DNA from: Eubacteriales bacterium
GTDB lineage: Bacteria > Bacillota > Clostridia > Oscillospirales > CAG-272
Direction of reading: 5' to 3'
Length of the DNA: 64,000 nt
Assembly (NCBI GenBank): GCA_045643885.1
Contig: JAZRFY010000026.1
Coordinates: 3,953-67,952 of the forward strand
Shown here: one piece after another, positions 1-11,309 of the stretch
How positions within the stretch are numbered: position 1 is the stretch's first letter
Layout: each line of letters starts with the position of its first letter
The notes under the pieces: generated by a model
What the model saw: the letters and a program-made list of their open reading frames with translations, nothing else
Databases searched by the model: none
Told to the model about the DNA's origin: nothing
Program-made: the position numbers and the translations under genes

Positions 1-2756
1 TTAGATGTATCAAATGATGTTCTATTAGATGTAGAAGAGAAGCTAAGTGTACCAAGAAGCTTCATAGAAGCAGCTGATCCACCACATACTGTGCAAAGAC
101 CATCTACGTAGTTATGATTGCCAGTAGCCTTTTCAGAACCAGCTGCGCCACAAACTACACATGTAGAATCCTTACCGCATGTTGCTGCATTCCAAGAAGA
201 GCAAACGTGAGGAACGTCGATTGTTACTGTAGAAGAGCCCTGAGCAATCTGAGCTACTGTGTTATAAATAGTAACTTTACCTTCAACTGTTACAACGTCA
301 CCGAGAGTAACCTTAGTTGTTGTTCTGAAAACAAGAACCTTGTTTCCATTTTCATCAATGATGTAAGGAGAGCAGTTGTTGTAGGAGCTCCATTCTTCAT
401 AGAAGCTATGAACTGTACCTGTGAACTTAACTACTGTACCTTCAGCAGAAGCAAGAACTTCGGGAATAGACATAAGACCGTCATCAGGAGTTGTGGAACC
501 GCTGTTGCCGCCTTCTTCGCCGCCTTCACCGCCTTCGGGAGGAGTTACTTCGCCACCTTCAGAGGGAGGAATTACTTCGCCGCCTTCAGCGATTTCGATT
601 CTACCGGGATACTGAGAACCGGAAGCGATCTGATCTCTGTAGTACTGACCTGACAAGCTGAATGTGTTGTATGTACCGTATGTACCAGCAAAGAATGTAT
701 CGGACTTACCGGAGATTTCATCGAAAATTTCGATAATACCGTAAGTTGTGTTGTATGTCCAAGGCAATGTAGGTGTCTCTGTTGTAAGAGAGAAGTGGCA
801 TCCTGCATAACCGCTATCCTTAAGATAAGCAGCTGCTGTGATATATGTCTTTGTTTCGCCATCCATAAAGAAGATGTGATAGCCACCGGTTACTTCTTCA
901 AAGTAGATAGCAACGGAAGCAGTAGCATCTGTTGTTGTTGCAAGGTAATTACCGCTTATAGAACCAGCAAAGTAAACCTTACCGCTGGGAAGCTCCATAA
1001 AGAAATTGTAGGGCTGACCAGCTACGGGAGCTGTGTAAGCAGGAGTAACAACGGGACCGTCGCCGCCTTCGTTACCACCTTCATTACCACCGTTGCCGCC
1101 TTCAACTTCACCTGTGTAAACTTCGATCTTTTCGATACGAACCTGAGATGTGAGAGTTGTGGACTGGAATACGTTTGTGGGAGCGCTGAATACGATTGTA
1201 AGAACATCGTTTTCACGTGTGATTGTTGCACCTGCAACTGTCATACCGTCCATACCGGACATGTAATTCTTTGTTCCATCGGGACTATAATCGTCAAATG
1301 TGATAACGATCTTTGTCATGCCGGGATATTCGATCTTAATTGTAGAACCAGCATATGCTCTCTGAGCGTAGGAAGGCTGAACTGTAAGAGCAGAAGTAGA
1401 GGAAGCCTTATCGTTTGTGAATGTAATGCCGTTTGCTGCGAAAACGTTCTGTTCGCCGGAACCTGTTACGAGGTTTGCATTACCCATCAAATCAAGAACA
1501 ACTGCGCCTGTTGTTTCGCCGCCGCCTTGATTGCCACCGTCATCGGGAGTGCCTTCGCCCTTAACTACGTTACGGATAACACCACCGGAAGTTGTTTCGT
1601 ATGTGCCATTGTAGTTTGTGATACCAGCAAATACTGTGATTGTATCACCAACTTCAAGCTCTTCACCACCGTTAAGTCTGTAGCAAAGAACGGGCTTATC
1701 TGTCATGCCATCAACTACGATGTTAACGGAAACGTTGTTATAAGCGGGATCGTATGCGTACTTAATGGATGTGATAACACCTGTAAATTCATAAGGACCT
1801 TCAAGAGTCTGACCGGACTCGAGCTTGTAGAGAGCCTCTACAACGTCCTTAGATGTGTAGTTTTCGGGAACTGTGGGAAGCTCCTGTTCAGGAAGTGTTT
1901 CCACCTCACCACCTGCACCGTACAAACGGCAAGGATAGTTTGTAGCACCGTTAAGGTAATCAATAGCAGAGCAAGAGATTGACTTGTATGTGCCGGAAGA
2001 GCCCATAAAGAACTGCTGGCCTGTTACAGATGTGTAAACAAGTGTGTTGTGTTCTGTGCTGTATGTGAAGTATTCAGAGGGAACAACTGTATCGAACTTA
2101 AGTGTACCCTTTGTTGTATCGCCATCTCTGGGGAATGCTACGATGTATGTCTTAACACCGTCTTTATCGAAGTAAAGTCTGTAACCACCTTCAACACCTT
2201 CAACTGCTTCGAGATATACGTCAACAGCAGAGAGGATGTCAGTTGTGTAAGAGAAGTACCAGCTATAGTTATTGTAGTTGTTACCATCGAAGTAAACAAC
2301 GCAACCTTCGTTACCGTGGAGAAGAGCGAGCTTGTAAGCAACGCCTACTTCAGGATTTGTGATCATACCGAAGGAAACTGTAACAACGGCATTAAGCTCG
2401 AATGTAGCCTTCTGACCACCATCTGTTGTAATGTTAGCAGTAAGTGTGTAGTTTGTTGTTTCCTTAACGTCCTTGGAAATTCTAACTACTGCCATACCAT
2501 CAACGTTTTCAACAGTAACGAATTCGTTATTAGAAGTCCATTCAATGTTGAAAATTGTCTGACCAACCTTGATCTGAGCAGCAAGCTCTTTGCCGTCAGG
2601 GATTGCAGTGTTCTGAGTCTTCTTGTACATATCCTTAAGCTCAGCAACTGCTTCTGCGATATCTGTTTCCTCAACCTTAGGCTGGAAGAGGTTACAGGAA
2701 GCAAATGTGCTCAAGATGAGTACCAAAACAATGAAGAGAGAGAGAATTCTTTTCAT
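1..2756 (-). CDS. large secreted lipoprotein, 3' end runs off the window (918 codons visible); duplicated beta-rich modules, OB-fold-like barrels, Gly/Glu/Pro linkers, Cys-rich CxxCG motifs
   Basis: Absent from the ORF track because it has no stop inside the window. My own translation of the minus strand starts at the ATG at comp(2754-2756), with AAGGAG 5 nt upstream, and is stop-free down to position 3. The N-terminus MKRILSLFIVLVLILSTFASC is a lipoprotein-type signal. The + strand ORFs 114-653, 795-1982 and 2049-2771 are codon-aligned antisense shadows of it. Confidence 0.85.
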   Translation of the reverse strand, partial: MKRILSLFIVLVLILSTFASCNLFQPKVEETDIAEAVAELKDMYKKTQNTAIPDGKELAAQIKVGQTIFNIEWTSNNEFVTVENVDGMAVVRISKDVKETTNYTLTANITTDGGQKATFELNAVVTVSFGMITNPEVGVAYKLALLHGNEGCVVYFDGNNYNNYSWYFSYTTDILSAVDVYLEAVEGVEGGYRLYFDKDGVKTYIVAFPRDGDTTKGTLKFDTVVPSEYFTYSTEHNTLVYTSVTGQQFFMGSSGTYKSISCSAIDYLNGATNYPCRLYGAGGEVETLPEQELPTVPENYTSKDVVEALYKLESGQTLEGPYEFTGVITSIKYAYDPAYNNVSVNIVVDGMTDKPVLCYRLNGGEELEVGDTITVFAGITNYNGTYETTSGGVIRNVVKGEGTPDDGGNQGGGETTGAVVLDLMGNANLVTGSGEQNVFAANGITFTNDKASSTSALTVQPSYAQRAYAGSTIKIEYPGMTKIVITFDDYSPDGTKNYMSGMDGMTVAGATITRENDVLTIVFSAPTNVFQSTTLTSQVRIEKIEVYTGEVEGGNGGNEGGNEGGDGPVVTPAYTAPVAGQPYNFFMELPSGKVYFAGSISGNYLATTTDATASVAIYFEEVTGGYHIFFMDGETKTYITAAAYLKDSGYAGCHFSLTTETPTLPWTYNTTYGIIEIFDEISGKSDTFFAGTYGTYNTFSLSGQYYRDQIASGSQYPGRIEIAEGGEVIPPSEGGEVTPPEGGEGGEEGGNSGSTTPDDGLMSIPEVLASAEGTVVKFTGTVHSFYEEWSSYNNCSPYIIDENGNKVLVFRTTTKVTLGDVVTVEGKVTIYNTVAQIAQGSSTVTIDVPHVCSSWNAATCGKDSTCVVCGAAGSEKATGNHNYVDGLCTVCGGSAASMKLLGTLSFSSTSNRTSFDTS

Positions 2757-2836
2757 AATAGCTCCTTTTAAATTTTTATTTTAGACAGCGCTTAAACGCT
2801 GATTCTAACTAATAAATGAAATAGAATTGAAATGAA

Positions 2837-4240
2837 TTATTCGTGGAATGTTACGTCGTTAATAGAGAATACCTGAATCTGGTAAGTACCAACTGTTTCT
2901 CCTTCGGGGAGATAATAGTCGATAGTACCCTTAACGTCGATGGTCTTGCCAACGAACTGATCCTGAGTGATGAGATTACCATCTGCATCTCTGAGAACGA
3001 TTGTACGAACCTGAATTTCCACACCGTTTACTGTGCAGTAAAGGGAGATAGCGCCCTTGCTGTCACCCTTTTGGGTTGTGTAAGCGCTCTTAACGTAGAG
3101 GTTGTTCATGGATACGGAAGCATCCTGTGCAAGGAACATAAAGGGGAATTCCTTAACAACGTCTTCACCGTCAACTGTTGTAGTGATTGCAACGAAGCCC
3201 TGGTTGGACTGAGGATCGAAATGCAAGGGAGTAACAAGCTGATAGCCGGGCTCATTTCCTGTGGAGATGAGGCTCATATTCTTTGCATTTTCTGTATCCC
3301 AAACATCGTACTTAAGGTCAGTAATCTGGTAGGAGCCGTTGAACTCGCCAACAACGCCTGCAAATCTGAGCTTGTTACCTACCTGCAAAAGCTCAAGACC
3401 GAAACCGTCAAGACCTGATGTGAGGTAGTAAGCAGAGATACCGTAGTAGATACCGTCTTCTTCGTCATAAGCTTCAATGTAAACTGAACCGCCGCTATCC
3501 TTAACGATAACGCCCTCGAATGCAACTCTTGCACCGATATAGTCTTCAATGTTTACCTTAAGCTCTTTGATTGTCATAAACTGAGCATCACCGTAGGGGA
3601 AGTCAGGGTCTTTTACGTTGGAAGGAGCGTAAACGTTAATTTTTGCTTCAGCTGCCTGAGCGATAGCCTTTTCGCAGTACTGAGCGTAAACGTATCTACC
3701 GGATTTGCTGGAAACAGCAAGACCTTCCTGAAGGATTTCAAGGTTAAGGTTTCTGTAATCAGCTTCACCTGCGGGTCTGTACCAAACCCAAACAAGGAAT
3801 CTTTCGCCTGTAGAGTCTACGTTCCAGTTGCTGTCATCACTTTCGATGATGATAGAATCAGCGCTCTGAAGCTTGGACTTTGTAAAGTTAGAAGCCTTTT
3901 TACCCCAAGGCTCGATCTTACCTGTAGATTCAGGAGTGTTGATGCCAAGATATCTTGCCTTTACAACACCTTCGATACCGGGTGCTTGGGAAATACCGTT
4001 GATATTTCCGCTATTGCTTACGTAGAAGTGAGTAGTGTCGCCGTCGATGAACATCTTAACGCTAACTTCCCACTTGAGTGTGTCGCTATCCATATCAAGC
4101 TTAAGCTGAGAGGCATAGTCAACCCACTCCTTCTCATCTGTGCCATCATCGGGGGTCTTGAACCATTCGCAAGCCCCCAATGTAGCTACAAGTGTGCAGA
4201 TAAGAAGAAATATTGATATAAATCTAATAAATTTCTTCAT
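2837..4240 (-). CDS. thermonuclease (staphylococcal nuclease, SNase) family lipoprotein with C-terminal beta-barrel (OB-like) domains
   Basis: Signal plus lipobox MKKFIRFISIFLLICTLVATLGAC. SNase core motifs ARYLGINTPESTGKIEPWGKKAS and RNLNLEILQEGLA. About 250 aa of extra C-terminal beta-rich sequence. Confidence 0.85.
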   Translation of the reverse strand: MKKFIRFISIFLLICTLVATLGACEWFKTPDDGTDEKEWVDYASQLKLDMDSDTLKWEVSVKMFIDGDTTHFYVSNSGNINGISQAPGIEGVVKARYLGINTPESTGKIEPWGKKASNFTKSKLQSADSIIIESDDSNWNVDSTGERFLVWVWYRPAGEADYRNLNLEILQEGLAVSSKSGRYVYAQYCEKAIAQAAEAKINVYAPSNVKDPDFPYGDAQFMTIKELKVNIEDYIGARVAFEGVIVKDSGGSVYIEAYDEEDGIYYGISAYYLTSGLDGFGLELLQVGNKLRFAGVVGEFNGSYQITDLKYDVWDTENAKNMSLISTGNEPGYQLVTPLHFDPQSNQGFVAITTTVDGEDVVKEFPFMFLAQDASVSMNNLYVKSAYTTQKGDSKGAISLYCTVNGVEIQVRTIVLRDADGNLITQDQFVGKTIDVKGTIDYYLPEGETVGTYQIQVFSINDVTFHE

Positions 4241-4284
4241 ATTATTAATTTATAAATCCTATAAAATGTTGTTTTGGAGTTTTA

Positions 4285-5688
4285 TTAGTTCTGCTGGCAG
4301 ATTTCGTAGTACTTCTGGAACTCAGAGTTGATCATAGAGCTGTTGTCCGCGTTAAGCACATACTTTGAGAATACGGACTGAAGAAGAAGACCAACCTGTG
4401 TACGAGCGTCTGCAGAACCTGCAAATGCGGGAGATGTGTAGTAAGCATCCTGCTGTTCAAGAGCTACAAGAGCAACGAGAGATGTGATGAAGTCACCACC
4501 GTTAGCCTTATCAAGAGCGTTCTTGTAAGTGGGTGTTTCCATAACAGACTTGATTACGGGAACGTAACCGGACTTCATAGCGTATTCAGCCTGGAAGCGC
4601 TGGTCTGTTGTGAGGAACTTGAGGAAGAGCCAAGAAGCGTAAACTTCCTGAACGTTTTCATCTTCAAAGATACAGATAGAGGGACCCTGAGAGATAACCT
4701 TGGGGTTAGAAGCGTCAACCTGAGGAATAGAAACGATGCCTACTTCGAAGGGATATGCGCCGTCAACCTTGTCAGGTCTCTGGTATCTAGCACCTGCAGA
4801 GGAACCGATGGACATGAAGATCTTACCTACTTCGTCATCAGCCTTCTTGAAGCCGTCAGATGTGTAAGAACCACCCATAAGAGCAGATGTGGACATCCAA
4901 CCCTTCTGGTACCATTCAGCAAACTTAGCAAGGAATGCCTTGTTTGTGTCGTTAACAAATGTGTAGTGCTCACCTGTAGCACTTGTGTACTCAGAATTGT
5001 ACTGTTCTACAAGAGTGATGAACATGTTTTCTTCGGAGTCATATCCGAGAGGAGTGGAGTTGGGGTAGTTCTGCTTAAGAACCTGAATGATTTCTTCAAC
5101 GTCGTCCCATGTTTCAGGAGCTTCAAGTCCGAGTGCATCAAATACTGTCTTATTATAATAAAGAACTTCTGTTGACTTCTGGAAGGGGAGAGAATACATC
5201 TTACCGTCGCCGTATTCCTTACCTTCATTGTAGTAAGCTTCGATAAAGTCATCGAGCTGAGCCTGTGTGAAGCCCATCATTTCGCCTGTGCCAAGAACGT
5301 TCTGGTTGTTGATGAGGTCATCAAGAACTACAACGGATTCAGACTTGTTGTAAGTAGCAACGTGGTCGGGATAGCAGAACGCCAAGTTGGGCTGGTTACC
5401 AGCTGTGAGCTTTGTTCTGATCTGGTCAAAAATGCCATCGTAATCGCCCAAGGACTGGTGTTCGATTGTGATGTTGGGGTACTTTTCGTTGAATCTTGCG
5501 ATTGCGTCTTCGAGCAATGCCTTGTTGTCAGCACCCATTGAATGCCAGAAAGTGATTGTTACTGCAGATCCGTCATATGATCCTGTAAGGTCGAGATCAA
5601 CAACAGGGTTGTTGTTGAAACAGGATACCAATGCAAATACATTGATGATCATAGCAACAAGAAGAAGAGAAACGAGAATTCTTTTCAT
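4285..5688 (-). CDS. ABC transporter substrate-binding lipoprotein (family 1 / CUT1-type)
   Basis: Lipoprotein signal ...FALVSC. Size and sequence are typical of family-1 extracellular solute-binding proteins. It sits directly downstream of two MalF/G-type permeases. Confidence 0.85.
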   Translation of the reverse strand: MKRILVSLLLVAMIINVFALVSCFNNNPVVDLDLTGSYDGSAVTITFWHSMGADNKALLEDAIARFNEKYPNITIEHQSLGDYDGIFDQIRTKLTAGNQPNLAFCYPDHVATYNKSESVVVLDDLINNQNVLGTGEMMGFTQAQLDDFIEAYYNEGKEYGDGKMYSLPFQKSTEVLYYNKTVFDALGLEAPETWDDVEEIIQVLKQNYPNSTPLGYDSEENMFITLVEQYNSEYTSATGEHYTFVNDTNKAFLAKFAEWYQKGWMSTSALMGGSYTSDGFKKADDEVGKIFMSIGSSAGARYQRPDKVDGAYPFEVGIVSIPQVDASNPKVISQGPSICIFEDENVQEVYASWLFLKFLTTDQRFQAEYAMKSGYVPVIKSVMETPTYKNALDKANGGDFITSLVALVALEQQDAYYTSPAFAGSADARTQVGLLLQSVFSKYVLNADNSSMINSEFQKYYEICQQN

Positions 5689-5778
5689 TTTTGTTTTTTC
5701 CTTTCGAAAATAGAATAATATTTGTTAAGATTTATCTTGCCCATAAGAATGATAAATCTTGAAACCGAATGTTAGGGA

Positions 5779-6705
5779 TTAACCCTTGATACCACTTCTT
5801 GAAACGCCCTTCATGATATACTTTCTGAAGAACATGAATACAAGGAAGAGGGGAAGAGATACTGCAGCAACCGCAGACATCTGAATAGGAATGTTTACGT
5901 CCATAGTCTGAACGAGCTGCTGTGTTACAGGGTCATAGTCAACCTTAAATCCTGCATCACGGATACCCTGAGTGATAAGCTTCATGTTTTCATCACTGAT
6001 AACAAGGTTAGGCCATACGTAAGTATTCCAAGAGCCCATCATCTTAAGAATTGTGATTGAGATGATAGTGGGGAATGCAAGCGGAATCATAACCTTCCAA
6101 AGATACTTAAAGTCGCTTGTACCGTCAACCTTAGCTGCAAGGTAAAGCTCGTTGGGAATCTGAAGGAAGTTCTGTCTCAAAAGATAGATGTAGAAAACGC
6201 TTACAAGGAAGGGAATGATAAGCACCTCATAGGTATTTTCCCAGTTGATAAGAGCGATAGTCTGATAGTTTGTGATCGTGAAAAGCTCACCGGGAATCAT
6301 CATTGTACCAAGAAGAGCTGCAAAGAGCGCGTTCTTGCCCTTGAATTCAAGTCTTGCAAAAGCAAAAGCTGAAAGGATCGTAATTACAAGTGAAAGGAGT
6401 GTTGAAACAACACCAACGTAAACTGTATTAAGGAACAATTTTTCAAGGTTAGCTGTTTCAAAAGCATAGAGATAGTTCTCAAAGTGGAACTCTTCAGGGA
6501 AGAGTGTGGGAGGATTTCTCATATATTCTGTCATTGACTTAACAGAAGAGATGAGCATCCAATAGAAGGGGAGCAAAACTGAGAAAGCAACTGTCAAAAG
6601 GAAGCCGTAATTGATAATAGTACCAAATACTTTAGTAACCTTCTGAGTAGTAGTTACTTTGGCAAAGTCTTTTTCCTGCATTGTGCGTGATGTAAGATTA
6701 GCCAT
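5779..6705 (-). CDS. carbohydrate-type ABC transporter permease (MalG/UgpE-like)
   Basis: Six-TM profile with the EAA-like loop LAAKVDGTSDFKYLWKVMIPLAFP. Confidence 0.9.
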   Translation of the reverse strand: MANLTSRTMQEKDFAKVTTTQKVTKVFGTIINYGFLLTVAFSVLLPFYWMLISSVKSMTEYMRNPPTLFPEEFHFENYLYAFETANLEKLFLNTVYVGVVSTLLSLVITILSAFAFARLEFKGKNALFAALLGTMMIPGELFTITNYQTIALINWENTYEVLIIPFLVSVFYIYLLRQNFLQIPNELYLAAKVDGTSDFKYLWKVMIPLAFPTIISITILKMMGSWNTYVWPNLVISDENMKLITQGIRDAGFKVDYDPVTQQLVQTMDVNIPIQMSAVAAVSLPLFLVFMFFRKYIMKGVSRSGIKG

Positions 6706-6717
6706 GCTTGCACCTCC

Positions 6718-7686
6718 TTAATACTGAGTCTTCTTGCTGCTTACCTTGAGGTTAATAAGTGTAACCACGAAGATAATGCCAAACAAGATAAGAGCAGCTG
6801 CGCTTGCTCGACCCTGGTTCTGAGCGATATACTTATAAATATAACCAACCATCGTATTAAGACGGTAAGCTTCACCAACAGGACCCATACTTTCACCGAA
6901 TACACCGACGATACTTGTGTATTCCTTAAATCCTCCGATAAAGCCTGTGATGATAACGTATGCAATCATAGGAGAAAGAAGCGGTACAGTAATTCTTGTG
7001 AAAGTTCTTACCTTGGAAGTACCGTCAACCTTAGCAGCATCATAGTACTGCTTGTTTACACTCTGCAAGCCACCAAGAAGAATAAGGATCTTGAAGGGAA
7101 GAGCGTTCCAAACGATGTATACAACCATTACCAACATATTTTGCCAATATGTGGACTGCGGACCTAACCAGTCAACAGGAGCAATGTGGAACAGGCCAAG
7201 AATATCGTTAACGATACCGGCAGTTACAATAATAGTTTCACCATTATTCTTAACTGTAGACATGGTAAACATTGCTGCAAATACAATACCTATCGCAATT
7301 GAGTTTGTAACGTAGGGAAGGAAGTAAATTGTCTGCAATGTTCTGTTAAGGAATTTAATAGAGTTAAGAGAAACCGCGATAACCAACGCAATGAATGTTG
7401 AAAGCGGTACTGTCAAAACGCAAAGGAGGAGAGTGTTCTTAAGGATATTGGCGAACTCTTTGTTTTTGATAACAGTCAAAAAGTTTTCAAAACCTATAGT
7501 AAAGGGATATGGATCTCCTCTGTATTGGCCCTTACGGAACCAACCAAGCTCGATTGCTGTATCATAGCCCTCAAAGAATGCAAGTCTTACTGTGTTAATA
7601 ATAGGCCAAACAGTAAAGATAAGCAAAAGGATGATTGCGGGTGTAAGATACAACCAAGCTTTCCATTGTTGTTTATTATCAACCAT
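6718..7686 (-). CDS. carbohydrate-type ABC transporter permease (MalF/UgpA-like)
   Basis: TM-rich protein with the EAA loop DAAKVDGTSKVRTFTRITVPLLSP. Confidence 0.9.
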   Translation of the reverse strand: MVDNKQQWKAWLYLTPAIILLLIFTVWPIINTVRLAFFEGYDTAIELGWFRKGQYRGDPYPFTIGFENFLTVIKNKEFANILKNTLLLCVLTVPLSTFIALVIAVSLNSIKFLNRTLQTIYFLPYVTNSIAIGIVFAAMFTMSTVKNNGETIIVTAGIVNDILGLFHIAPVDWLGPQSTYWQNMLVMVVYIVWNALPFKILILLGGLQSVNKQYYDAAKVDGTSKVRTFTRITVPLLSPMIAYVIITGFIGGFKEYTSIVGVFGESMGPVGEAYRLNTMVGYIYKYIAQNQGRASAAALILFGIIFVVTLINLKVSSKKTQY

Positions 7687-7698
7687 AGCCAGCTCTCC

Positions 7699-8796
7699 TT
7701 AGAAATAGATTCTTTCTTCTGTTTCCTTATTGAAAACAAATACCTTATGAGGCTTAAGAGAGAAGCTTACAGTCTTAGCTGTAGCATCGATCTGAGCGTC
7801 GGAATTGATGATAGATCTTACTACGGGGTTAAGAGAATCGTCGTGAGTAGAAACGATGCTTACGTCACGTCCCATAACCTCGATATTTGAAAGGTTAACT
7901 GTAAGAGGACCGTTAGGATCAAGGTTGAAGCCTTCAGGACGGATACCAACAGTTACGGGCTGATTTTCAACGCCGGGAGTTTCAAGAACCTCAGCACCAC
8001 CGATAAGGAGCTTGCCGGACTTGATTTCACCGTTGAATACGTTAACAGGAGGAGTACCAAGGAACTTAGCAACGAAGAGGTTAGCGGGATCGTCATAAAC
8101 GTTCTGGGGCTTACCGATCTGCTGAACAACACCAAGCTTCATAACAACGATGAAGTCGGAGATGCTCATTGCTTCTTCCTGGTCGTGAGTTACGAAAATT
8201 GTTGTGATGCCAGTTTCCTTCTGGATTCTCTTGATCTCTTCACGAGTCTGAAGTCTGAGACGTGCGTCAAGGTTTGAGAGAGGTTCGTCAAGAAGAAGAA
8301 CGCGGGGCATTTTAACAAGAGCACGAGCAATAGCTACACGCTGCTGCTGACCACCGGAAAGCTCACTGGGCTTTCTCTCCATAAGCTCGTCGATCTGAAC
8401 GAGTCTTGCTGCCTCATAAGCTCTTTCGAGCATAACTTCCTTAGAGAGCTTATCAGCGCCCTTAAGGTTCTGCAAGGGGAACAAAATGTTCTGCTTAACA
8501 GTCATATGAGGGTAAAGTGGGTAGTTCTGGAATACCAAGCCTACGCCACGGCTTTCGGTCGGAAGCTCGGTAACGTCTTCGTCACCAAAGAATATCTGAC
8601 CTGAGGAAGGTTTTTGCAAACCACTGATCATGTAGAGGGTTGTACTTTTACCGCATCCTGAAGGACCAAGCAAGCCAATAAGCTTACCGTCAGGAATTTC
8701 GAAGTTAAAGTTATTAACCGCTACAACATCTTCGCCAACCTTTTTCTTATCACGGTTAGGGAAGACCTTTGTTAAATTCTGCAAAACAACTTTCAT
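7699..8796 (-). CDS. ABC transporter ATP-binding protein (MalK/UgpC/MsmK family)
   Basis: Walker A GPSGCGKST, signature LSGGQQQRVAIARAL, Walker B LLLDEPLSNLD, and a C-terminal MalK-type regulatory domain. Confidence 0.95.
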   Translation of the reverse strand: MKVVLQNLTKVFPNRDKKKVGEDVVAVNNFNFEIPDGKLIGLLGPSGCGKSTTLYMISGLQKPSSGQIFFGDEDVTELPTESRGVGLVFQNYPLYPHMTVKQNILFPLQNLKGADKLSKEVMLERAYEAARLVQIDELMERKPSELSGGQQQRVAIARALVKMPRVLLLDEPLSNLDARLRLQTREEIKRIQKETGITTIFVTHDQEEAMSISDFIVVMKLGVVQQIGKPQNVYDDPANLFVAKFLGTPPVNVFNGEIKSGKLLIGGAEVLETPGVENQPVTVGIRPEGFNLDPNGPLTVNLSNIEVMGRDVSIVSTHDDSLNPVVRSIINSDAQIDATAKTVSFSLKPHKVFVFNKETEERIYF

Positions 8797-8857
8797 AAAA
8801 TCTCCATTTCCTTTTATATAAAAAATTTTATTTTGAGAACAAATTTAATTAAGGCAA

Positions 8858-9673
8858 TCAATAAGGTGCCTTATCTGCCATTTCCTTGTGGATACGGCGC
8901 TTATATTCCTCCAAAGCTTTAACTGAATCGAATATCATCTGACTTTGAAGGTCAACAACGACTGTAACAGCCAATTTGTCGTGAATGAGTGATCTTGTTC
9001 TGCGTGAGGTCAAGAAGAACACAACCTCAAGCAATAATATCAAAGCAAGAATTGACAATGGCAATATGGGAGAGAAACCAAGCAATAAGAATAATCCCAT
9101 CAGAAGGGGCACCATAGTTTCAATCGTGAATTTACCAAGTATAGTTCTTACAAAGAGCATAAAGGGAGTAATCTGTACGCAATCCTCTCTGACAACGGCG
9201 ATTGAGAAAAGCTTCTTTCCAAGTGTCTGACCGTTTTTAAAGAGAAGGGGAACGATAAACTCAAGAGCGATGTAAGCAAGCAAGATTGCCAATGAAACGT
9301 TTGTCAAAACCATTGAAAACATAATTGCCTCGTAGCTTGCAATGTCTTCATCATTTTCAATTGCATCGTGGCAAAGCTTAAACGGCTCTTTAACCTCGTC
9401 AGGCAAAAGAGCGATTTCATCGTCAAGCATGTAATCACTCATGATCTCATATTGACTAAAGCTTACCTCATACTTTTTCTCAAGCTCGGAAATGTTGTAC
9501 ATTTCCAAATAATAATTTTCTTTATCGGATGCCGCATCTATATATGAGTCATATCCGGTTATATTAAACAAAAGTAATGCAAGTCCAAGAGCCAAAATGA
9601 CAATGAAAATAAAGTCAAGAAGGAAAGCTGAGGCTCTCTTTGTAAAGCTTGCTTTTTGCAAATCGTAAATCAT
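8858..9673 (-). CDS. RDD family membrane protein
   Basis: N-terminal KRASAFLLDFIFI, GQTLGKKLFSIAVV and C-terminal HDKLAVTVVV match the RDD-domain pattern. Several TM segments are present. Confidence 0.75.
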   Translation of the reverse strand: MIYDLQKASFTKRASAFLLDFIFIVILALGLALLLFNITGYDSYIDAASDKENYYLEMYNISELEKKYEVSFSQYEIMSDYMLDDEIALLPDEVKEPFKLCHDAIENDEDIASYEAIMFSMVLTNVSLAILLAYIALEFIVPLLFKNGQTLGKKLFSIAVVREDCVQITPFMLFVRTILGKFTIETMVPLLMGLFLLLGFSPILPLSILALILLLEVVFFLTSRRTRSLIHDKLAVTVVVDLQSQMIFDSVKALEEYKRRIHKEMADKAPY

Positions 9674-9935
9674 CTCAAAAAACCCTTATTATAATTTAAT
9701 GTGGGAAACTATGTAAACGAAAGTTTGCATAGCTATAAATCATAAAATTACCCTATATACATAATAGCACAAACTTCTTCAAAAAACAAGCATTTTTTTC
9801 TCAAATAAAAGCAAAAAATAATTTTTCGTCAATTTGACAAAAAATGATATAAAAAAGGCAAATCATAAGTAATTTAGTACAAATTCAGCACTAAGAAAAT
9901 TCATTTATATTCATATTTTTAGCCGAATTTATATA

Positions 9936-9977: not shown

Positions 9978-11309
9978 TTACTCGTCAGAGTCCTCTTCTT
10001 CAAGGGGAAGCTCTTCTTCCTTAACAATTACCTCGATTTCGTGTGACATAAGGTCATCAGCCTTAGTTACGGTAACTGTCAAATTGTTATATTCAAATGA
10101 GAAACCGACCTCGGGAATGCTTTCCGCGTGCTCGTTTACCCAACCGTTTACGGTTGTTGAATCACTCTCTTCGTCAACGTCAAGCTCAAAGAAAGAGAAG
10201 AATTCGTCAAGAGAAACCGTGGACAATACGCGATATTTGTCATCACCGATTGCCTTAATAGGTTCAATAGCTTCATCAAGCTCGTCCCAAATTTCACCAA
10301 CAAGCTCCTCGATGATGTCTTCCATACTTACAACACCTGATGTAAGTCCGTATTCATTAACAACGATTGCTATGTGGTTGTGAGAATCCTGCATTTCCTT
10401 AAGCAACGCATCGAGATGCATTGTCTCGGGTACGTATTTGGGAGGGAACATTGCGTCCTCAATTTTGTATTTGGGATTGCTGTAGTTAAGAAGATATTCG
10501 CGGGCATAAAGCACGCCAACTATCTTATCAAGACTATCCTCATAAACAGGAATTCTTGAATATCCCTCTTCCTTAATGATTTTAAGGAGCGCCGTTTTTG
10601 TGATATCCTGAGGAATAGCTACAAGTGACGTTCTTTGAGTCATAACGTCTGCAGCTGTAAGATTGTCGAGCTTAAATACGTTCTTTATGTATTCAACGTC
10701 GTCCTCGTCAAGACCACCCTCGTCTGCACCTGCATCAAGCATGGTAACGATATCCTCCTCAGAAACAACCTCTTCCTTTTCTTCGGGATCTATACCGAGA
10801 AGTCTGAGAATACCGTTTGTGGATACTGTGAGGAACCAGATGATGGGTTTAAAAATTGTTGTAAGGAAGGAAACCACTCCACAAAATGCTTTTGCAACCT
10901 TTTCCTTGTTCTTCATAGCAACTCTCTTGGGAACAAGCTCACCAAGAACGAGAGTGAAGTATGAGAGGATAAGTGTTACAACAATGACTGAAATTGTCTG
11001 GATAAGCTCTATATGTGCGTGAAGGCCGAATTCTTCGACGATTTGTTTTGTGATCATATCACCGAATTTGTCAGCAGCAAAAGCAGAGCCCATAAATCCT
11101 GCGAGTGTAATTCCTACCTGAATAGTAGAAAGGAATTTTGTGGGATCATCAAGGATCTTGACAATCCTGGAAGCTTTTTTGTCACCGTCCTCAGCAAGAG
11201 CCTTCATTTTCTGGCTGTTGAGGGAAACGACTGCAATTTCTGTTGCAGCAAAAAAAGCGTTGAGTGCGATAAGTATAAACTGTAGTAATAATTGTCTGAA
11301 TATAGACAT
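9978..11309 (-). CDS. CNNM/DUF21 + CBS pair + CorC_HlyC domain membrane protein (hemolysin-family / putative divalent-cation efflux)
   Basis: N-terminal DUF21 TM region (FAATEIAVVSLN), a CBS-pair region, and a C-terminal CorC/HlyC transporter-associated domain. Confidence 0.9.
   Translation of the reverse strand: MSIFRQLLLQFILIALNAFFAATEIAVVSLNSQKMKALAEDGDKKASRIVKILDDPTKFLSTIQVGITLAGFMGSAFAADKFGDMITKQIVEEFGLHAHIELIQTISVIVVTLILSYFTLVLGELVPKRVAMKNKEKVAKAFCGVVSFLTTIFKPIIWFLTVSTNGILRLLGIDPEEKEEVVSEEDIVTMLDAGADEGGLDEDDVEYIKNVFKLDNLTAADVMTQRTSLVAIPQDITKTALLKIIKEEGYSRIPVYEDSLDKIVGVLYAREYLLNYSNPKYKIEDAMFPPKYVPETMHLDALLKEMQDSHNHIAIVVNEYGLTSGVVSMEDIIEELVGEIWDELDEAIEPIKAIGDDKYRVLSTVSLDEFFSFFELDVDEESDSTTVNGWVNEHAESIPEVGFSFEYNNLTVTVTKADDLMSHEIEVIVKEEELPLEEEDSDE

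Follow-up and report, generated by a model that had tools for sequence, protein, structure and literature searches.

Why should the gene of a surface nuclease stand directly behind those of a sugar-type ATP-binding cassette (ABC) importer, and what would such an importer carry? The question is raised by a tight row of seven genes on the minus strand at bases 1–9717 of the window, the 64,000-nucleotide stretch analysed here from contig JAZRFY010000026.1 of a Eubacteriales bacterium, an uncultured Gram-positive inhabitant of the gut (GTDB lineage Clostridia; Oscillospirales; CAG-272). In order of transcription the genes encode an RDD-family membrane protein, an ABC ATPase, permease A, permease B, a substrate-binding lipoprotein, a nuclease lipoprotein of the staphylococcal nuclease (SNase) type and a giant lipoprotein. 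The first-pass annotation of this DNA had proposed a capture-degrade-import module for extracellular nucleic acid. Conservation of the gene neighbourhood supports that proposal, and we consider it likely that these proteins capture and cleave nucleic acid at the cell surface and import the fragments, possibly still phosphorylated.

Domains were searched with Pfam and NCBIfam profiles and RNA families with Rfam, and structures were compared as AlphaFold2 models with Foldseek. Relatives were sampled by scanning a one-genome-per-species collection, in which at least 583 stretches encode a relative of the nuclease. Comparative counts refer to the best 80 of these stretches, taken with their flanks and labelled L001–L080, unless another number is given. 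All 80 belong to genomes assembled from metagenomes of gut and rumen, under labels such as Clostridia, Eubacteriales, Oscillospiraceae and Lachnospiraceae.

Gene layout and conserved neighbourhood

The features of the gene row are as follows, in the direction of reading.

9688–9717, minus strand: promoter-like site (TTTACA, 18 nt spacer, TATAAT; 11 of 12 consensus matches), about 15 nt 5' of the RDD start codon
8858–9673, minus strand: RDD-family membrane protein, 271 aa (PF06271, 49.6 bits)
7699–8796, minus strand: UgpC/MalK-type ABC ATPase, 365 aa (ABC_tran, 128.5 bits; NCBIfam UgpC, 336.5 bits against a cut-off of 432)
6718–7686, minus strand: permease A, MalF/UgpA-like, 322 aa (BPD_transp_1, 63.2 bits)
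5779–6705, minus strand: permease B, UgpE/MalG-like, 308 aa (BPD_transp_1, 49.8 bits)
5727–5760, minus strand: AU-rich hairpin with a 10-bp stem in the permease B/binding-protein spacer (centroid -8 kcal/mol, z-score -1.2, weak)
4285–5688, minus strand: substrate-binding lipoprotein, 467 aa (SBP_bac_8, 121 bits; also SBP_bac_1)
2837–4240, minus strand: SNase nuclease lipoprotein, 467 aa (PF00565)
2781–2808, minus strand: short GC hairpin in the nuclease/giant spacer (centroid -10.8 kcal/mol, z-score -1.8), not called in the terminator scan
1–2756, minus strand: giant lipoprotein, ATG at 2756, first 918 of 1029 aa (full length from the exact match P0121)

The order of the RDD, ATPase, permease, permease, binding-protein and nuclease genes was kept in 80/80 loci as far as the contig reaches, and it holds at nuclease identities down to 45%. 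Wherever a related contig extends far enough, the ATPase gene is immediately preceded by the RDD gene on its own strand. A census of homologue neighbourhoods had been set beforehand as a possible refutation; in it, the nuclease and ABC genes were linked in 80/80 loci and a giant-type lipoprotein followed in 70/70. At the upstream edge of the block the conservation stops, and the CNNM, SDH_alpha and M16 peptidase genes found there were kept in only 4/50 loci.

Further recurring genes were found beyond the block. In 43 loci, SurE stands with two paralogous DHH/DHHA1 (NrnA-like) genes as a convergent trio 1.3–7.5 kb past the nuclease; of the loci in which 8 kb or more of downstream sequence is available, only 11 do not have it. 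On either side of the operon, an HD/HD_assoc phosphohydrolase recurs in 19 loci, Tdk in 15, DeoC in 13, a DeoB-Cdd fusion in 12 and Pdp in 9. Continued proximity despite shuffled positions is typical of genes that share a pathway. The earlier proposal had named nucleic acid or another phosphodiester polymer as the substrate; because SurE, NrnA, Tdk, DeoC, DeoB-Cdd and Pdp surround the related loci, nucleic acid is now much more likely than the second option. As a separate observation, the SurE/NrnA trio is often followed by an HD/HD_assoc phosphohydrolase and a thymidine kinase.

The gene calls and the terminator scan bore out the reported same-strand order, the gaps of 12–90 nt and the absence of terminators. 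From the ATPase onward the spacers measure 12, 12, 90, 44 and 80 nt, while the RDD–ATPase spacer is 61 nt long, unstructured and without a hairpin. No intrinsic-terminator-like site was found by the terminator scan in any spacer. Neither spacer hairpin is followed by a T-run, and an A-rich stretch lies 3' of the one at 2781–2808. The hairpin at 5727–5760 is possibly an mRNA processing or stability element, and that at 2781–2808 is at most a weak attenuator. The site at 9717–9688 is the best promoter-like match in the region, and is a putative promoter by consensus match alone. Given the short gaps, the lack of terminators in the spacers, the promoter-like site before the RDD gene and the unstructured RDD–ATPase spacer, the row reads as a seven-gene unit, predicted from its sequence to be co-transcribed. 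The six genes first described as the operon thus remain in it, and its start shifts: the operon most likely begins at the RDD gene (9673–8858), one gene earlier than first thought. The RDD protein is probably a conserved accessory of the operon as well as its first gene.

A near-palindrome, ATGCAAAC-TTTC-GTTTACAT, at 9711–9730 overlaps the -35 hexamer of the promoter-like site and may be a candidate operator. An element resembling it, TATGyCAAyTTTTrGTTkCA, is present in the close relatives L001, L002 and L006; more distant loci have in its place an extended -10 promoter and a 5' leader with a species-specific hairpin. Rfam gave no RNA family match in the window, and on seven related loci it gave just two tRNAs and one purine riboswitch, from which we conclude that the operon leader contains no known riboswitch. 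The purine riboswitch (L059:2211-2308; RF00167, 40.6 bits against a gathering threshold of 37) lies about 2.4 kb 5' of the RDD gene and precedes two open reading frames (ORFs) of 181 and 555 aa.

The surroundings of the block, annotated at 9978–39672 of the window, are those of an ordinary chromosome. The 20 ORFs there have products that include a CNNM/CorC transporter, an SDH_alpha-family protein, an M16 peptidase, TrmK, NIF3 and a sigma factor, and further ClpX, trigger factor, threonine synthase and an M19 dipeptidase. The idea that the row belongs to a mobile element or to an island gained by horizontal transfer was rejected in view of these surroundings, a flat GC content of about 0.35–0.45 and the lack of a mobile-element signature. 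Three plus-strand ORFs (114–653, 795–1982 and 2049–2771) were rejected as genes: they lie opposite the giant gene, encode Cys-rich, low-complexity sequence and have the look of shadow ORFs.

The nuclease and the giant lipoprotein

The two proteins encoded behind the transporter genes were divided into the following parts.

aa 56–205, nt 3626–4075, minus strand: SNase domain of the nuclease
aa 238–307, nt 3320–3529, minus strand: beta-barrel 1 of the C-terminal part of the nuclease, probably OB-like
aa 385–456, nt 2873–3088, minus strand: beta-barrel 2 of the C-terminal part of the nuclease, probably OB-like
aa 30–127, nt 2376–2669, minus strand: N-terminal helix and atrophied-Ig module of the giant lipoprotein
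aa 128–292 and aa 573–728: domains D1 and D4 of the giant lipoprotein (hhalign D1 to D4, 99.8%)
aa 318–394, nt 1575–1805, and aa 776–843, nt 228–431, minus strand: OB-folds 1 and 2 of the giant lipoprotein (hhalign with each other, 98.4%)
aa 417–550 and aa 897–1029: domains D3 and D7 of the giant lipoprotein (hhalign D3 to D7, 98.4%)

The SNase core of the nuclease, first recognized from the motifs RYLGINTPES, WGKKAS and NLNLEILQEGLA, all of which are present, was confirmed by PF00565 (42.3 bits against a cut-off of 21, aa 95–203), and 50/50 aligned homologues match the same family. The AlphaFold2 model of the protein (pLDDT 84.9) superimposes on S. aureus nuclease with a target TM-score of 0.84–0.87 and an rmsd of 2.0–2.5 Å, variants of that enzyme filling the Foldseek list from the Protein Data Bank (PDB). 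When the family profile was compared with the S. aureus enzyme, residues D21, R35, T41, E43 and R87 of the latter corresponded to the invariant D68, R96, T102, E104 and R147 of the Clostridia nuclease. The model also contains the extra beta-barrel domains that had been suspected, two in number (aa 238–307 and 385–456). Barrel 1 shows the topology beta1-3/helix/beta4-5, which is the order of an OB-fold; both barrels enter an OB-fold profile only at iteration 3 (E 1e-5), with hhalign values of 40–47%, and both are probably OB-like.

Lipoprotein signals had been noted on the binding protein, the nuclease and the giant lipoprotein, and in all three a signal peptide is followed by a lipobox (ALVSC, TLGAC and TFASC, respectively). 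The lipobox Cys is invariant in the homologues (Cys24 and Cys21 in the alignments). Since its signal peptide ends in this invariant Cys, the nuclease is expected to be tethered to the surface, and the description of it as secreted was corrected to lipid-anchored rather than freely secreted.

The giant lipoprotein had been reported as longer than 918 aa because the window edge falls inside its gene (base 1); the full protein has 1029 aa, in agreement with that bound. Its model (pLDDT 80.8) has eight domains, in which a three-domain unit is present twice after the N-terminal module, with a Cys-rich segment between the two copies. OB-fold 1 was matched over aa 324–393 by phmmer from one Pfam-validated PF01336 repeat of the relative P0217 (E 8.5e-8), and OB-fold 2 was recovered at iteration 2 (E 8.7e-13). 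The relatives P0217 and P0237 reach 92 and 86 bits against PF01336, with several repeats, and P0192 passes at 31.3 bits. The D1 and D3 domain types, both beta-rich, had no Pfam family match; of the 70 lipoproteins encoded behind the nuclease in related loci, 42 contain the D1 type and 7 the D3 type.

The nuclease gene is followed within 86 nt by the start of an ORF of 200 aa or more in 76 loci (median gap 30 nt). The N-terminal module was found in 70/70 of the post-nuclease genes tested and one to seven OB-folds in 58/70, while the proteins range from 390 to 1670 aa and are mostly about 16–35% identical. As all 70 share the N-terminal module, the giant lipoprotein belongs, by sequence comparison, to the constant parts of the operon, while the rest of the protein changes rapidly. 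Its OB-folds lend indirect support to nucleic-acid binding, and the protein, with its variable body behind a constant N-terminal module, is a candidate receptor for DNA at the cell surface.

A second lipoprotein of about 360–410 aa follows the OB-fold lipoprotein in 22/80 related loci, outside the window (L047:13819-15006; L005, L011, L018, L021, L035, L048, L072 and others). Its C-terminus carries a barnase/RNase Sa-like motif, YFELD ... TRGAARIV ... FYTNNHYNDF, and matches the Pfam family Ribonuclease (PF00545) below threshold (E 0.003, 18.5 bits against 24). If real, it would be a second surface nuclease, the products of which would also carry 3'-phosphates.

The transporter and its cargo

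The transporter has the composition of a CUT1-type ABC importer (TC 3.A.1.1), with a family-1 binding protein, two BPD_transp_1 permeases and a MalK/UgpC-type ATPase in one cluster. Pfam and NCBIfam agree here with the initial assignment of a MalK/UgpC ATPase, two MalF/G-type permeases and a family-1 binding lipoprotein. The ATPase carries a C-terminal regulatory beta domain (CysA_C_terminal and OB_MalK matches, both sub-threshold). For permease A the best NCBIfam matches were MalF and UgpA, MalF scoring higher and both lying far below their cut-offs; for permease B the best match was UgpE, and for the binding protein UgpB. None of the four proteins reaches the equivalog cut-off of its Ugp counterpart (UgpB 77 against 411 bits, UgpE 97.5 against 297, UgpA 52 against 335, and UgpC as listed above).

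The nearest PDB relatives of the binding protein were E. coli UgpB (6x84/4aq4), the 7c0f series and Phaeobacter UgpB (9lff). We take the 7c0f series to be the T. thermophilus dinucleotide binder. In UgpB, two Tyr and two Ser contact the phosphate, Gly, Arg and Glu contact the glycerol hydroxyls, and two Trp clamp the glycerol (PMC12718374). The Tyr/Ser/Ser/Tyr set is common to UgpB, the M. tuberculosis glycerophosphocholine binder and the T. thermophilus dinucleotide (U3G) binder and is not shared by sugar binders (PMC12718374). Residues were mapped by HMMER pairwise alignment to E. coli UgpB at about 20% identity, in mature-N-terminus numbering, which places Trp169 correctly. Y83, S172, S293 and Y375 of the binding protein align with the E. 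coli phosphate ligands Y42, S121, S247 and Y323. Among 76 orthologues, S172 and Y375 were kept in all, Y83 in 71 and S293 in 65, and D108, G335 and R429 were each present in 76/76. In 150 more distant cluster representatives, Y83, S172 and Y375 were kept in 122–126.

The E. coli W169/W172 glycerol clamp was absent in 76/76 orthologues, its positions being taken by a variable residue (A/S/E/N) and the invariant Phe223. The clamp is likewise missing in the larger-pocket glycerophosphocholine and dinucleotide binders (PMC12718374). With the phosphate ligands kept, the Trp clamp absent and the UgpB equivalog threshold missed widely, the protein looks like a phosphate-ester binder with a different, probably larger partner moiety. 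It resembles the UgpB clade (4aq4/6x84; 9lff; M. tuberculosis 6r1b; the T. thermophilus U3G binder, Chandravanshi et al. 2021) in the aligned and conserved Tyr/Ser/Ser/Tyr, Gly and Arg positions, but differs from it in its low identity and score and in the lack of the Trp169/Trp172 clamp. The earlier statement that the transporter's substrate cannot be read from the sequence was therefore overtaken in part, in that the residues with which the UgpB clade binds phosphate are present in the binding protein; it stands for the actual ligand, the identity of which we infer together with its link to the cytoplasmic enzymes.

The wider binding-protein family comprises 451 clusters at 50% identity (E <= 1e-30). 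Of the 150 nearest cluster representatives, 57 have at least 550 aa and long N-terminal extensions (e.g. P0245, P0247, P0249, P0261, P0271, P0277 and P0253), built of Cys-rich ribbons, leucine-rich repeats, helical and beta modules, atrophied-Ig modules and a few OB-folds. These enlarged relatives recall the Mycoplasma P80/MslA lipoproteins of about 700 aa. The idea that the extensions are OB-folds was rejected, as just 6 have one and the rest are Cys-rich, leucine-rich-repeat or helical modules; the idea that the distant relatives are Mycoplasma P68 lipoproteins was rejected as well, 0/10 matching the P68 model at E <= 1e-8.

A mechanism can be proposed on this basis. The membrane-anchored giant lipoprotein would hold extracellular DNA or RNA at the surface through its OB-folds and other beta domains, with the N-terminal module serving for docking, and the lipid-anchored nuclease would cut the polymer into short 3'-phosphorylated mono- and oligonucleotides. 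The UgpB-related lipoprotein would take a phosphate-bearing product and deliver it to the two permeases, with transport powered by the UgpC/MalK-type ATPase and the RDD membrane protein acting as an accessory. In the cytoplasm, two NrnA-type nano-oligonucleotidases, the 3'/5'-nucleotidase SurE and the HD phosphohydrolase would yield nucleosides, which Tdk, Pdp, DeoB-Cdd and DeoC would process to bases and pentose phosphate. The products of SNase (EC 3.1.31.1) carry 3'-phosphates, and such products fit both a phosphate-recognizing binding protein and an intracellular 3'/5'-nucleotidase. More tentatively, the cargo may be the phosphorylated nuclease products themselves, nucleoside 3'-phosphates and/or dinucleotides, read via their phosphate and passed on to SurE/NrnA.

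The main rival explanation is that the transporter imports dephosphorylated products, either nucleosides or free ribose/deoxyribose, the nuclease starting the breakdown and other extracellular phosphatases finishing it. Uptake of nucleosides, not nucleotides, is the general rule in bacteria. Most CUT1 transporters import sugars, the Pdp, DeoB, DeoC and Tdk enzymes encoded near the operon act on nucleosides and pentose phosphates, and the ABC transporters of the DNA loci of Izemoplasmatales were read as probable nucleoside/nucleobase transporters by Wasmund et al. (PMC8289736). However, the conserved neighbours showed no secreted phosphatase or 5'-nucleotidase. The nearby SurE has no recognizable signal peptide (L001 sequence), so that it would act inside the cell, and NrnA enzymes need intracellular oligonucleotide substrates. 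The binding protein, moreover, keeps the UgpB-clade phosphate residues that are absent from sugar binders (PMC12718374). We regard import of dephosphorylated products as unlikely.

A second explanation is a Ugp-like importer of glycerol-3-phosphate (G3P) or glycerophosphodiesters derived from teichoic acids or phospholipid head groups, with the SNase acting as a general phosphodiesterase or linked in some other way. UgpB, UgpE, UgpA and UgpC are among the best-scoring named families for the four transporter proteins, and the M. pneumoniae homologues have been drawn as a G3P transporter, MPN133 mutants being impaired on glycerol (PMC3178575, PMC4766277). Against this, all four proteins fall far below the Ugp equivalog cut-offs, the Trp clamp of UgpB is absent in every orthologue, and SNase-family enzymes are known as DNA/RNA nucleases. 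No GlpQ, GlpK or GlpD was seen near the loci, while nucleotide and nucleoside enzymes recur there. Given this gene context, a true glycerophosphate importer is very unlikely. Still less credible, given the same context, is a non-nutritional nuclease and giant lipoprotein (for clearance of biofilm or mucus extracellular DNA, competition or foreign-DNA defence) sharing a transcript with an unrelated sugar transporter, since, although staphylococcal and mycoplasma surface or secreted SNase-type nucleases act in biofilm and neutrophil extracellular trap degradation (PMC4881454, PMC12115388), the nuclease strictly adjoins the same ABC genes in 80/80 loci and the whole block stands beside nucleotide salvage and catabolism genes, which is hard to explain without a metabolic connection.

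Several points weigh against the preferred reading of capture, cleavage and import of nucleic-acid fragments. The SurE, NrnA and Deo genes were seen just in related genomes and none occurs elsewhere in the 64-kb window, so this context is extended to the window genome from the close relatives L001, L006 and L054. The 80 loci may represent few related lineages; their ATPase identity is mostly 73–90% (range 61–90%), and some of the synteny could thus be inherited rather than selected. In the nuclease, the calcium ligand Asp40 is replaced by Asn101, which is invariant in 50/50 aligned family members, whereas the active M. bovis homologue retains Asp at this position (PMC4881454). The activity or metal preference of the nuclease could therefore differ, although Asn101 could also serve as a metal ligand. 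For the binding protein, the binding-site mapping rests on a pairwise alignment at low identity, and in the distant relatives the S293 position is Ser in 67/150 and Cys, Thr or Val in the others. The giant protein of the window scores 16.2 bits against a PF01336 threshold of 27, and Foldseek with the whole model gave weak, high-rmsd matches, including HIN-200 OB domains at E ~5e-3, which were not relied on. No experiments on any member of the operon family were found in the open-access literature. The substrate of the Mollicutes precedent described below is likewise unsettled, its M. pneumoniae ABC transporter being the one drawn as a G3P importer, and MPN133 mutants showing poor growth on glycerol (PMC3178575, PMC4766277).

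Related systems and biological meaning

The precedent that the first-pass annotation had named from Mollicutes, an SNase-like lipoprotein gene within an ABC operon, proved to be real. In M. agalactiae, P80/MAG_5030, the SNase gene MAG_5040 and ABC genes form an operon with overlapping transcripts (PMC3585158). Such lipoprotein-SNase-ABC operons comprise MAG_5030-5070 of this species, MBOVPG45_0307-0311 of M. bovis, MslA/MGA_0676 of M. gallisepticum, mhp379 of M. hyopneumoniae, MG_185-189 of M. genitalium and MPN133-136 of M. pneumoniae. According to PMC3585158 and PMC4045577, the large lipoprotein (P80/P81/MslA), the SNase lipoprotein and the CUT1 ABC genes are co-transcribed, import of nucleic-acid precursors has been proposed for them, and the surface lipoprotein MslA binds DNA.

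In the Mollicutes operon as in the Clostridia operon, the gene of an SNase lipoprotein adjoins those of a CUT1 ATPase, two permeases and a solute-binding-like lipoprotein, and by gene content the two can be regarded as counterparts. They differ in order, the lipoprotein and nuclease genes lying before the ABC genes in Mollicutes and after them in Clostridia. The Clostridia binding protein is of ordinary size (467 aa) and outside the P68/P80/MslA family of Mollicutes: its match to the Mycoplasma P68 model NF045826 reaches 40.7 bits against a cut-off of 200 and is confined to the N-terminal 183 aa. The RDD protein, the OB-fold giant lipoprotein and the two C-terminal barrels of the nuclease are extras of the Clostridia operon, and the Asp40 position is Asn in its nuclease but Asp in the M. 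bovis enzyme. An RDD counterpart does not appear in the Mollicutes operon descriptions of PMC3585158 and PMC4045577.

Loci for DNA degradation that include ABC transporters have also been described in Ca. Izemoplasmatales (Wasmund et al. 2021, PMC8289736; Xianfuyuplasma coldseepsis zrk13, PMC8397711), and growth on DNA was shown for one isolate of this order (PMC8289736, PMC8397711). By description these loci are similar to the Clostridia operon and its surroundings, with extracellular nucleases co-localized with ABC transporters, phosphohydrolases and 3'-5' nucleases and with a protein of about 1,049 aa bearing nucleic-acid-binding domains, comparable to the giant lipoprotein. In contrast to the Clostridia operon, they include phosphate transporters and EddB-type proteins as well as several kinds of nuclease; the large protein bears nuclease and lamin-tail domains, and the lineages are of marine sediment rather than gut and rumen. 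The operon is a new variant of the DNA-scavenging loci of Mollicutes and Izemoplasmatales, not a new kind of system.

Staphylococcal (micrococcal) nuclease shares with the Clostridia nuclease the SNase fold and the catalytic Arg/Glu/Arg. The multi-domain cell-wall nuclease YhcR of B. subtilis also combines SNase and OB-fold domains on a surface-attached protein. By comparison, the Clostridia nuclease is lipid-anchored rather than sortase-anchored, has no 5'-nucleotidase domain, carries the invariant Asn at the Asp40 position and is encoded inside an ABC importer operon.

The gut and rumen are rich in nucleic acid from the diet, shed host cells and dead microbes, and little is known of the Firmicutes that harvest it; no papers on such a system in Clostridia were found in open-access text. 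To our knowledge, uptake of nucleotides or oligonucleotides has been proposed for mycoplasmas since 2007 and never demonstrated. If the CUT1 binding protein reads a phosphate ester rather than a sugar, it would provide a tractable model for such uptake. If the cargo is phosphorylated, the operon would constitute a route for nucleotide rather than nucleoside uptake that is widespread among Clostridia of gut and rumen, and would also answer the question, open for long, of what the homologous-looking Mollicutes operon imports. Should nuclease products indeed be imported, nucleic-acid scavenging would extend to a large set of Clostridia not yet cultured, and a supplement for their culture would suggest itself.

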